64,000 bases of DNA from Octopus vulgaris (GCA_951406725.2 OX597835.1:21266001-21330000), one strand, 5' to 3'. Shown: positions 43,934 to 46,900, numbered from the stretch's first letter. Numbers and translations are program-made. The notes: generated by a model not told the origin, from the sequence alone.

Positions 43934-46900
43934 ACTTTCTTTTATTAGCCACACAGGGCTGAATACAGAGGGGACAAATACAAATGCAGAGCTTTTCTTT
44001 TCGAGGGTGGAAAAAAAAAAAATGTAAGATTGCGATCAAAAGGGATCGAGAGGAGGAAAAAAAGGAAAAAAAGAAAAATCGTGTATCACAGAAATAATGG
44101 TGTAAACATTGATATAACAAGATTGGGTTCATCCGTGGGAAGAAAAGCCTACAGAAAAGACCACGGGAACCCCAGTCAGGGAGGAAATAAACACATGAGG
44201 TCAAAAATGCTCTCTTTCTTTCTTTTTTTACGATCTACAGGATCATGCTCAAAATGGTTTCGTTACTAGCACGCACCATCTTTGCAACATTCACCCATCT
44301 TTTATTGAATCTTTCGCGAGACAAAACTTCCCTCTCCATTCTCACCTTCCTTTTCAAGTGGTACTTGAAAAAGTTGATGAGCGAATGGCCAGAGAGGTAA
44401 GTGTTTGTCTCTAATCCTTTCGCTCGAGTCCACCACACACATTCTTTCACCATGGCCACCAGTACGATGAAAACTGCCTTGCCTTCCCGGTTGAGGGAAG
44501 GGGGCGGAGCAATTCTCACGATAGACTCGGCCGATAGGCGGATTCGTCCCACACGTGACAGCAGCCGTTCGGCATAAGCCCACAGGTCGGAAATGGTTGG
44601 ACATTGCACGAGTGCGTGCAGAACGGTTTCGTCGCTCTGACCGCATCTCGGGCAAGTCGGTCCAGTGTGTCTGGAACCGTGTCTGTAGAGCTTATCCCGA
44701 ACAGGTAATGCTTCTCGATAGCACTGCCAGGCCAGGGATCTTTGGTGATTGTTCATAGGTCCCGGCCCGAAAGTTGTCCTGAACAGGCGGGTCAGGTGTT
44801 CCTCGTCGACGCCCAGACTCTGCCCGAGTTCGTCGTCGCACCTCCCCTCCACTAATCCTCTATAGAATGCCTTTGTTGTGATGGAGTCGCACAAGTTCGA
44901 TCCCGGACGGCAGAGTTGCTTGAGAGCAACGCGACACTCACGGTGCCATTCGCCTAGCCTCGGTCTCTGCTTGATCCATGACTGTAGTTCGTCCAAGGAG
45001 ACGAGCTGCGGGAAAGCGCGCCGCACAAAAGGCGACCACCCCTGTTCACCGTTGTCTATGAAGCGCCGGAGATGTCGCAGTCTCAGCGCATGTCTGCGCA
45101 TCATCAACCACGGCATGCCCAGCCCTCCATTTAGCGGGTGTTGGCAGCAAATGGATCGCCTGACCATCGGAACGTTTCCCTTCCACAAGAAGCGGAAGAG
45201 TATGCGTTCCAGTTTGGTGATGGTAGGGTCGGGACAAGGCACGACGGTCAGACGGTACTCGATGACGGATGCGATGTACGCGTTCGCCACCTCCGCCCGA
45301 CCTTTTAGGGATAGCTTTCTCTCAGTCCATTTCTGGGTGAGAGTAGCCACCCTAGTCGTTATCTCGCCCCAGTTCTTCTCCATTTGGAGGTCCGGACCGA
45401 ACCAGACCCCGAGCAATTTAACCGGTCCGTCCGTCCAGCGTCCCACGATGGAGACGCTGTTGGACGGCATGGGCTTGCTTCTCCAGGTGCCGAGCCGCAA
45501 GCCCACTGACTTTTCCCGGTTAATTTTTGCTCCCGTTACCGCTTCGTATTCTTTCAGTGTCTCGCCGACCAGCTCGATGTGCTCGTAGCTCGACACTATG
45601 ACGGTGACGTCATCCGCGTATGCAGACACGCTCCTCCCGCATCCCAGCTCTCGTGGGATGCCCCTCAGCGTCGCCAGTTTCCGCAGTAGTGGCTCAAGAG
45701 TCAGTACATACAGCAGCGATGAGAGGGGGCATCCTTGACGAACCGAACGCATGATGTTAAAAGGTCTGGATAGATGACCATTTACGCGAACTACTGAGCG
45801 GATGCCGCTGTATAAGGCAGCGATCCAACCGCGGAAAACTGGACCGAAACCAGCCACTTTGAGGACAGCCTCCAAGTAGTGATGGTCTACCCTATCGAAG
45901 GCTTTTGATTGATCCAAATTGATCAGCGCCCCACCCATGCCAGGATTTTTAACTACCCTGTCTATGATGTAGCGCATCAGATGGAGGTTGTCATGAATAC
46001 TTCTACCCGGCACGGCGCATGTTTGCGCCTTGTCGATTAGTTTCTTGATGACAAGCGCCAACCTCTCGGCTAACACCTTGGCCAAAATTTTCAAATCTGC
46101 GTTGAGCAGAGTGATGGGCCTGAAATTATCTATGACGTCCCCCTTGTTTGGGTCTTTCTTGATCAGTGCCACTGCTCCTCGCTTTACAAAAGCAGGAATA
46201 CTCCCGTTCTGCTGCCAGTTGCAGTAGACAGCTGCCAAGACGCCTCCAAACAAGTCTGGCATATGAAAATAAAATTCGTAGGGCAGACCATCCAAGCCTG
46301 GTGACTTGTCTCTTGCGCAGCCTACCATCGCATCCTGTACGTCCGCAGCTGTGATAGGCTTTTCACAAGACTCCACCTCCCTTGCTGAGAGTCGTGGCAA
46401 GGCATGCAGGTAGGCACTAAAGTCCACTCTGCTTTCTGACTCACCACTTGTCCCAAACAGTTGGGTGAAGTGTTGTTGAAAAACCCCACACATCCTTTTA
46501 GGCTCGAGTAATTCGCGCCCCTGTTCATCTATAAGAGACTTGATGGTGGCTCTGTTGCCTCGTTGCGTCTCCACCACTCGGGCCTCTTGGGCGGCTCCAA
46601 CTCCTTCGTTCCTCAGAGCACGCATCCTAGCTCTGACAACGCATCCCTCGTGTTTGGCGTTGAGGTGTTGGTCGAGGGCCAATCTCGCCGCCAGTACGTT
46701 GGACGCGATGCCAGTTCTAAGTGCCTCTTCTAAAACCTTAACTAATTCTCCCTCTACTCTATTTCGGTCTAATGCTAGGGCTCTACTGTATCTGACTGAT
46801 TCTGCTTTAATCGCTTTTTTTAGGGCATACCACCATCTGTTGTTGATGATGGTACCCGTCAAAGCTCTCTTAACTAATGTGCTGATCCGGTCCCTGTAAA

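Follow-up and report, generated by a model that had tools for sequence, protein, structure and literature searches.

A 64,000-nucleotide (nt) stretch of the Octopus vulgaris genome (GCA_951406725.2 OX597835.1:21266001-21330000), hereafter referred to as the window, was analysed over its whole length, and the evidence was drawn from this 64-kb window, from contigs of public sequencing runs, and from the published literature. The DNA of the window is AT-rich, animal, and dense in microsatellites. It harbours a truncated copy of a long interspersed nuclear element (LINE) of the L1/Tx1 group, embedded in (GATA)n/(TATC)n arrays, as well as a family of short interspersed nuclear elements (SINEs), 18 tails of which are of a young type (Table 1). 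The LINE and the young SINE end in a common 43-nt segment, and the analysis concerns this segment and the enzyme by which the SINE may be copied.

The 3′ terminus of the LINE (43978-43936, minus strand) aligns with the SINE tail at 53811-53852 with 37 matches in 43 positions (blastn E-value within the window, 1.1e-8). The local score of this alignment is 54, while 2000 dinucleotide shuffles of the LINE 3′ untranslated region (UTR) gave a mean of 18.6, a standard deviation of 2.6, and a maximum of 31, none of them attaining the observed value. Each of the 18 young-type SINE tails in the window can be aligned with that of the LINE, the matches ranging between 28/38 and 37/43, and the similarity breaks off sharply, with 7 matching bases out of 40 upstream of the shared tail. 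Thus, the two families possess a 3′-terminal sequence in common, as is found in stringent LINE/SINE pairs. Both elements end without poly(A), and a small hairpin is present in the LINE (AGCC/GGCT) as well as in the SINE (GCCC/GGGT stem, 5-nt loop). The initial annotation had described the tail match, and it proved correct in the number of matching positions, coordinates and strand, as it did in the lack of poly(A) and the presence of the hairpin.

Table 1. Coordinates of the LINE, the SINE copies and their parts within the window.
Feature	Position	Strand	Remarks
L1/Tx1-group LINE copy, 5′-truncated	43934..47610	-	starts inside endonuclease domain; no ORF1, no 5′UTR
ORF2 remnant, 1123 stop-free codons	44235..47606	-	APE endonuclease, reverse transcriptase, C-terminal zinc knuckle
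LINE 3′UTR, ~300 nt	43934..44234	-	U-rich, poly(A)-free
43-nt terminal segment common to LINE and SINE	43936..43978	-	blastn, shuffle test, other LINE copies
Predicted 4-bp LINE-tail hairpin AGCC/GGCT, 6-nt loop	43947..43960	-	AATAAA (43941-43946) immediately after
(GATA)n/(TATC)n array, 3′ side of LINE	43531..43933		target
(GATA)n/(TATC)n array, 5′ side of LINE	47612..48487		target
Young-type (A) SINE, 233 nt	53622..53854	+	tRNA-like head, central domain, LINE-type tail
A-box-like motif	53635-53645	+	by eye
B-box-like motif	53696-53706	+	by eye
SINE-internal restart site of tandem units	53671..53672	+	7/18 tails enter GGTATTTCG; one more at homologous site
LINE-type tail of SINE 53622-53854	53811-53854	+	hairpin 53830-53842
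Second unit, headless	53855..54024	+	restarts at head site GG-TATTTCG
Young-type SINE trimer	22401..23002	+	then remainder of older B1-tail copy 23003-23203
Young-type SINE	29219..29452	+
Young-type SINE, 5′-truncated dimer	30796..31031	-
Young-type SINE	40430..40663	-	15-bp duplication
Young-type SINE trimer	49459..50061	-
Young-type SINE	50277..50510	-	within older antisense copy; 15-bp duplication
Young-type SINE	55882..56115	+	16-bp duplication
Young-type SINE dimer	58061..58400	-	second unit shortened
Young-type SINE	60250..60483	-	nested at older copy's head site; 13-bp duplication
Young-type SINE	61118..61348	-	directly 5′ of older B2-tail copy 61098-60881; target duplicated
Young-type SINE	61514..61747	+	then partial head of another copy
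Older SINE tail, type B1	23170..23203	+	also 15649-15682
Older SINE tail, type B2	60544..60577	-	also 23836-23869 +, 36094-36127 -, 53552-53585 -, 60881-60914 -

For the occurrence of the tail on other LINE copies, four public runs were aligned to 43920-44700, and the counts were drawn from 24 of 1129 loose-end rows; three of these runs were deep (two guessed to be DNA and one of unknown kind, with RNA labels being guesses as well). Among the rows listed, 73, 71 and 70 contigs of the three deep runs depart from this copy at 43941 into GATA/TATC repeat, through a tail-to-repeat junction that differs slightly from the end of this copy (agreement 0.57-0.60). In two of the three deep runs, 43 and 52 of the listed contigs join the tail at 43979 to a variant LINE-type UTR, and a further 16 and 18 do likewise at 43977, while two contigs listed for the fourth run link the tail to a SINE body. 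These other tail-to-TATC junctions and variant UTR joins indicate that several LINE subfamilies carry the tail. The concern, expressed in the initial annotation, that other copies of the LINE might lack the tail has therefore not materialised, as many copies from more than one subfamily possess it. Two common variants, T>C at 43964 and one base fewer at 43940, shift the LINE tail toward that of the SINE, and SINE-derived contigs may inflate the counts of both. With 1155 of 8757 contigs in run X1 at least 99% alike, the LINE family is of young age, and other LINE copies also appear to sit in (TATC)n. At least 74% of the sampled words of the LINE were present in 20 of the 24 listed runs (10 studies, two organisms). 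The 23-nt tail motif had no matches in viral or metagenome contigs, and an alignment search of viral sequences with ORF2 found no locus; 80 metagenome ORF2 loci were set aside as too distant, 79 of them having 23-39% identity and the last, a short piece, 47%.

The remnant of open reading frame 2 (ORF2) matches Pfam families PF03372, PF00078 and PF13966, and its homologues are 1143-1153 amino acids long, the closest named relative being a protein of Argonauta hians (65% identity). A PDB profile search with the LINE protein and 12 homologues yielded an E-value of 3e-121 for human L1 ORF2p versus 2e-39 for R2, which places the LINE in the L1/Tx1 group. The combination of an apurinic/apyrimidinic (APE) endonuclease, a reverse transcriptase (RT) and a C-terminal CCHC knuckle, nearest to L1 ORF2p, is likewise that of the L1 group. 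In the Tx1 clade, an ORF1 with zinc knuckles lies upstream of ORF2. Assignment to this clade is supported not by a reference tree but by sequence features, among them a preference for a target sequence, with (TATC)n on both sides of the copy and other tail-to-TATC junctions in the runs. According to the accessible part of PMC6007223, site specificity among APE-type LINEs is restricted to Tx1 and R1, and microsatellite-targeting Tx1 families exist, namely Kibi in (TC)n, Koshi in (TTC)n, and crocodilian families in (TTCC)n/(TTTC)n (PMC4494074); together with the (TATC)n flanks, this supports the Tx1 label. In a quick tree of 71 rows, the LINE falls together with animal elements, among them an Argonauta protein, and separately from plant L1; two rows named 'TX1' lie outside its group on a long branch. 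In this tree, 18 ENA proteins (P0004-P0021) are placed, with full support, as sister to the octopod LINE; their identity is 37-45%, and their clusters contain as many as 385 members. Comparison of the endonuclease loop with L1, LTX and LR1 structures did not distinguish Tx1 from L1, and the Atlas clusters for the LINE protein were generic (EN/RT/zf-RVT) and carried no taxa. A literature search on Tx1 and GATA, which did not extend to Repbase, found no family with a (TATC)n/(GATA)n target.

The young SINE is ~234 nt long, with A- and B-box-like motifs recognised by eye in its head. It is short, non-coding and flanked by duplications, as is characteristic of SINE2 elements, its tRNA origin being judged from the boxes only; no tRNA was called by ARAGORN. 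The 3′ ends lie at the same base in all 18 tails, which read AAAGAAATA in 16 cases and AAAGAAACA in two. Exact target duplications of 13-16 bp bound six of the nine full-length copies or arrays, including the dimer 53622-54024 (16 bp), which is located within an older antisense SINE; one further copy or array has a duplication of 8 bp and two have none. In L1-clade LINEs, duplications are most commonly 13-15 bp long and in RTE 10-12 bp, as given in the available text of PMC6007223, and the SINE duplication lengths fit the former better. A tail-reading enzyme would be expected to leave precise ends that lack poly(A) and repeats. The exact 3′ ends of the SINE, its duplications and the absence of 3′ repeats are compatible with an enzyme of the L1/Tx1 group by which a defined tail is read.

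The hexamer within the SINE tails is AGTAAA in 14 and AATAAA in four of the 18. The copies 53622-53854, 53855-54024 and 60250-60483 form a subfamily with diagnostic changes of its own and AATAAA instead of the majority AGTAAA, and the SINE tail closest to that of the LINE is the one ending at 53854. Certain tandem units have private changes in common and may represent local duplications or multimeric transcripts. [quoted passage not shown] When the SINE head was scanned for bacterial promoters, with a model ill-suited to this DNA, nothing was returned.

Older SINE copies in the window carry different tails (types B1 and B2), with a degenerate B2-type tail near 49340. Core identity is 0.69 among nine older copies versus 0.90 among 17 young ones, and young copies lie within or against older ones at 53622, 50510, 60483 and 61348, with no reverse case seen in the window. 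The tails of the nine older copies resemble the young tail more than 4995 of 5000 shuffles do. Eighteen young and seven older tails can be aligned with the LINE without gaps across the hairpin, and the register of GAAA is kept in the SINE tails; the LINE stem forms one base out of register relative to them. The 4-bp stem keeps its pairing in 88% of cells, both-sided changes occur in three of its four pairs across the A, B1 and B2 tails, none of 500 shuffles reaches the observed covariation, and RNAalifold independently predicts the same helix. Within the whole UTR, the LINE hairpin has a pair probability of 0.96-0.99. The covariation across tail types is suggestive of a conserved hairpin and does not amount to proof. 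A scan of the window against Rfam gave, among the 150 of 268 matches listed, only hits under the gathering scores, nearly all of them to microRNA families and apparently falling on simple repeats.

The initial annotation had interpreted the older copies (~23160, ~15650 and ~49340) as evidence of a partner switch by tail replacement. These copies do exist and do have other tails, but a foreign origin of those tails is not borne out, nor is the replacement, given that the older tails keep the loop, the spacing to GAAA and the covarying stem. What had been taken for replacement would amount to no more than an exchange between LINE tails that are related to each other, or to co-evolution. The young tail lies ~19 nt further from the core than the older tails and has a new upstream part, which makes an exchange probable, between related tails. 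The true carrier LINE may share these extra ~19 nt of the young SINE. The extra segment between core and hairpin (53800-53825) contains an internal TTTGTC repeat.

The landing sites of the two elements differ. None of the 18 SINE tails adjoins a (TATC)n array, and no TATC flank occurs among the SINE 3′ loose ends, counted in 18 of 118 rows from three runs; these ends have mixed AT-rich flanks or break after GGTA, GGTAT or GGTATT. Seven of the 18 tails continue into GGTATTTCG, which is position 51 of the SINE's own head, and, with the full copy 60483-60250, nested at the homologous position in an older copy and bounded by a 13-bp duplication, a total of eight run into one site within that head. 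At non-tandem insertions, TAT is found at positions 3-5 in 6/11 (p 9e-6) and GGTA in 4/11 (p 2e-8), both motifs having been chosen after inspecting the data; at tandem junctions, TAT is found at positions 3-5 in 7/7. The insertion signature of the (TATC)n LINE family is thus not that of the SINE, and the TAT core alone is common to both. The SINE carrier would appear to prefer NN-TAT and the SINE head, whereas the LINE family of the window dwells in (TATC)n.

Several further observations concern the head site. In the dimers and trimers at 22401-23002, 30796-31031, 49459-50061, 53622-54024 and 58061-58400, the later units always restart at position 51, and seven of the 13 occurrences of the 9-mer GGTATTTCG in the window lie directly after a SINE tail. 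Two young SINE tails, at 23003 and 61748, continue into what may be a further landing site in the head, close to position 19 of a different copy, with the flanks AGAAAT and AGTATC, which resemble the A-box region. The last six bases of the SINE, GAAATA (near 53849-53860), are the reverse complement of TATTTC in the head site; no counterpart complementary to (TATC)n was seen by eye in the LINE tail.

Other LINEs of the window were also considered as sources of the tail. Three decayed fragments at 13096-13466 (-), 16063-16212 (-) and 57336-57981 (+), each beside a (TAA)n array, are presumably R4/Dong-like, judging from a restriction-like endonuclease motif. The two R4/Dong-like 3′UTRs in the window scored 13 and 15 against the young tail, versus 54 for the LINE, and at best 22 and 18, within shuffle range, against the older tails; on the basis of these two UTRs, such fragments were rejected as donors. 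A non-Tx1 LINE with a better match, the other concern raised in the initial annotation, was seen neither among these UTRs nor in the 18 of 118 rows of SINE loose ends. At the (ATT)n/(TAA)n array 15688-15840, an older B1-tail SINE (+) and a Dong-like fragment (-) point at each other.

Taken together, the shared tail points to a SINE that is copied by a Tx1-type ORF2p via the 43-nt segment, with a carrier that is probably a sister of the (TATC)n family; we assign this reading a probability of about 0.68. The initial annotation had proposed that this family or a sister mobilises the SINE, and it is the sister that gains from the analysis: the LINE lies in (TATC)n and none of the 18 SINE tails does, so that a sister Tx1-type family is the likelier carrier and the family of the window the less likely one. 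Under the preferred reading, the SINE RNA would be transcribed by RNA polymerase III and selected by a Tx1-type ORF2p through its hairpin tail, not through poly(A). The enzyme would nick an NN-TAT site, often in the head of another SINE, and synthesis of complementary DNA would begin at a fixed point measured from the hairpin. Self-insertion at the head site, with the 5′ join made by homology, could produce the headless head-to-tail units, and the SINE lineage may have ridden successive related Tx1-type families.

Several points weigh against this reading. The 71 rows of the quick tree include neither a reference Tx1 nor a vertebrate L1, and annotations of O. vulgaris in the accessible part of PMC13282606 include L1-Tx1 (80 families) as well as L1 (60). 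No sister LINE was found in this window, and no LINE-type 5′ loose end on the SINE tail occurs in the 18 of 118 rows. That the tail passed from LINE to SINE, rather than in the opposite direction, is itself something we infer. The hairpin is thermodynamically weak: in isolation, its folding does not surpass that of shuffles (z between -1.67 and +0.37 in 7/7 folds), and within complete SINE RNAs its pairs have a probability of 0.27-0.82 in seven of eight copies and near 0 in one. The covariation stems from about three lineages, not from 25 events, and three of the 10 older copies, whose hairpin was missed by the anchor, stand outside its alignment; by eye, these keep 1, 3 and 3 of the four pairs.

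It is unlikely, in our view, that the (TATC)n family of the window is itself the carrier. Such a family would have a loose NN-TAT endonuclease, with the site set by the read-through flank of the RNA pairing to the nicked DNA, so that LINE RNA ending in (UAUC)n would prime in TATC arrays and SINE RNA with a head-site flank in SINE heads. The TAT core at 6/11 non-tandem and 7/7 tandem junctions agrees with it, as a (TATC)n array offers this core every 4 nt; read-through is plausible given that seven of eight SINE copies have no T run >3, and LINE RNA would reach into the array from an AATAAA ~6 nt from the LINE end. However, no SINE tail lies beside TATC, either in the window (0/18) or among the loose ends of the 18 of 118 rows, the two tails differ at 6/43 positions although the LINE family is young, and target choice is mainly determined by the endonuclease (PMC4494074).

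Still less likely appears a capture in the reverse direction, by which an ancestor of the LINE group would have acquired the last 43 nt of the SINE, the SINE itself being moved by an unrelated RTE, CR1/L2 or R4/Dong LINE. The far greater abundance of the SINE (18 young tails in 64 kb), the presence of the hairpin and GAAA already in older SINE tails, and the predominance of AGTAAA (14) over AATAAA (4) are in favour of such a capture; however, the tail is retained on several LINE subfamilies, in which it provides an intact poly(A) signal of RNA polymerase II, the duplication length is nearer to that of L1-clade elements than to RTE, and the two R4/Dong-like 3′UTRs score far below the LINE. SINEs carried by CR1, L2 or RTE usually have short tandem repeats at the 3′ end, and the octopus SINE has none. 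Examples of SINEs with such repeats are given in the available text of PMC3747384. Finally, a chance match, or a SINE fragment at the end of a single LINE copy, is highly improbable: the segment is just 43 nt long and T- and A-rich, in a window filled with SINEs, but no shuffle out of 2000 matched it, and ~70 listed contigs per run in three runs have other junctions, while others have variant UTRs.

A broader, tentative possibility is a modular octopod Tx1 system, in which the conserved hairpin tail would pick the RNA and the landing site would be set separately, in part by a read-through flank; the older SINE tails, with their co-varying stems, might then be a record of past carriers, and the SINE might now be its own landing pad.

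Short 3′ stem-loop segments common to a SINE and a LINE are likewise known from UnaSINE1/UnaL2, V-SINE/CR1 and Sauria SINE/Bov-B, as described in the accessible part of PMC3747384; unlike the UnaSINE1/UnaL2-type pairs, the octopus LINE belongs to the L1/Tx1 group and the SINE lacks 3′ tandem repeats. Table 1 of that survey, which covers 58 SINEs, names no Tx1 element and no mollusc (PMC3747384). Closer parallels, in the available portions of PMC3747384 and PMC3472496, are ZmSINE2/ZmSINE3 with LINE1-1_ZM in maize, where an L1-clade LINE shares a conserved tail of ~45 nt whose hairpin shows compensatory changes, and SINEX-3_CR with L1-1_CR in an alga, with a shared L1-clade tail of ~80 nt. These plant and algal cases are the sole three L1-tailed SINEs in the accessible part of the survey (PMC3747384), whereas the octopus case is animal and poly(A)-free, and its LINE is target-specific. 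For the crocodilian SINEU, mobilisation by a Tx1 family (Tx1-Mar) has likewise been proposed, the partner having been judged from a common target, and SINEU too forms tandem insertions that enclose a target duplication (PMC4494074). SINEU has poly(A) and no LINE with the same 3′ end was found for it (PMC4494074), whereas the octopus SINE has a shared tail, a tRNA-like head and no poly(A). As in Kibi, Koshi and the crocodilian Tx1 families, L1-group APE LINEs within simple repeats, the octopus LINE inhabits a microsatellite, its target being (TATC)n/(GATA)n instead (PMC4494074).

The octopus SINEs OR1 and OR2 are tRNA-derived CORE-SINEs (Ohshima and Okada 1994), and in the available text of the papers citing them (PMC4824008, PMC4758252, PMC5804259) no partner LINE is named. 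The present SINE may be OR1/OR2 or a relative. A literature search, which did not extend to Repbase, Dfam or the 1994 octopus SINE paper, found no description of an octopus SINE with a Tx1 tail, and it is quite possible that the SINE/LINE pair has been described elsewhere.

Human L1 accepts RNA of any kind, provided that it has poly(A). The accessible part of PMC3747384 raises, as an open question, the strictness or laxity of the enzyme ancestral to the L1 group, and the strict L1-type cases there are all from plants or algae. With a Tx1-type family that is young, of animal origin, and equipped with an open ORF2 and a 43-nt poly(A)-free tail in common with a very abundant SINE, this question could be put to the test in the animal elements most closely related to L1. 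SINEs constitute 11.7% of the O. vulgaris assembly, according to the available part of PMC13282606, and the preferred reading, if true, would identify what drives the spread of much of the SINE DNA in octopus. The occurrence of the same tail in families with different targets would imply that the choice of RNA can be separated from the choice of DNA, which is relevant to tools for site-specific insertion. If the modular system were to prove real, octopods would possess an animal relative of L1 with stringent RNA recognition and targeting that may be steered by RNA.

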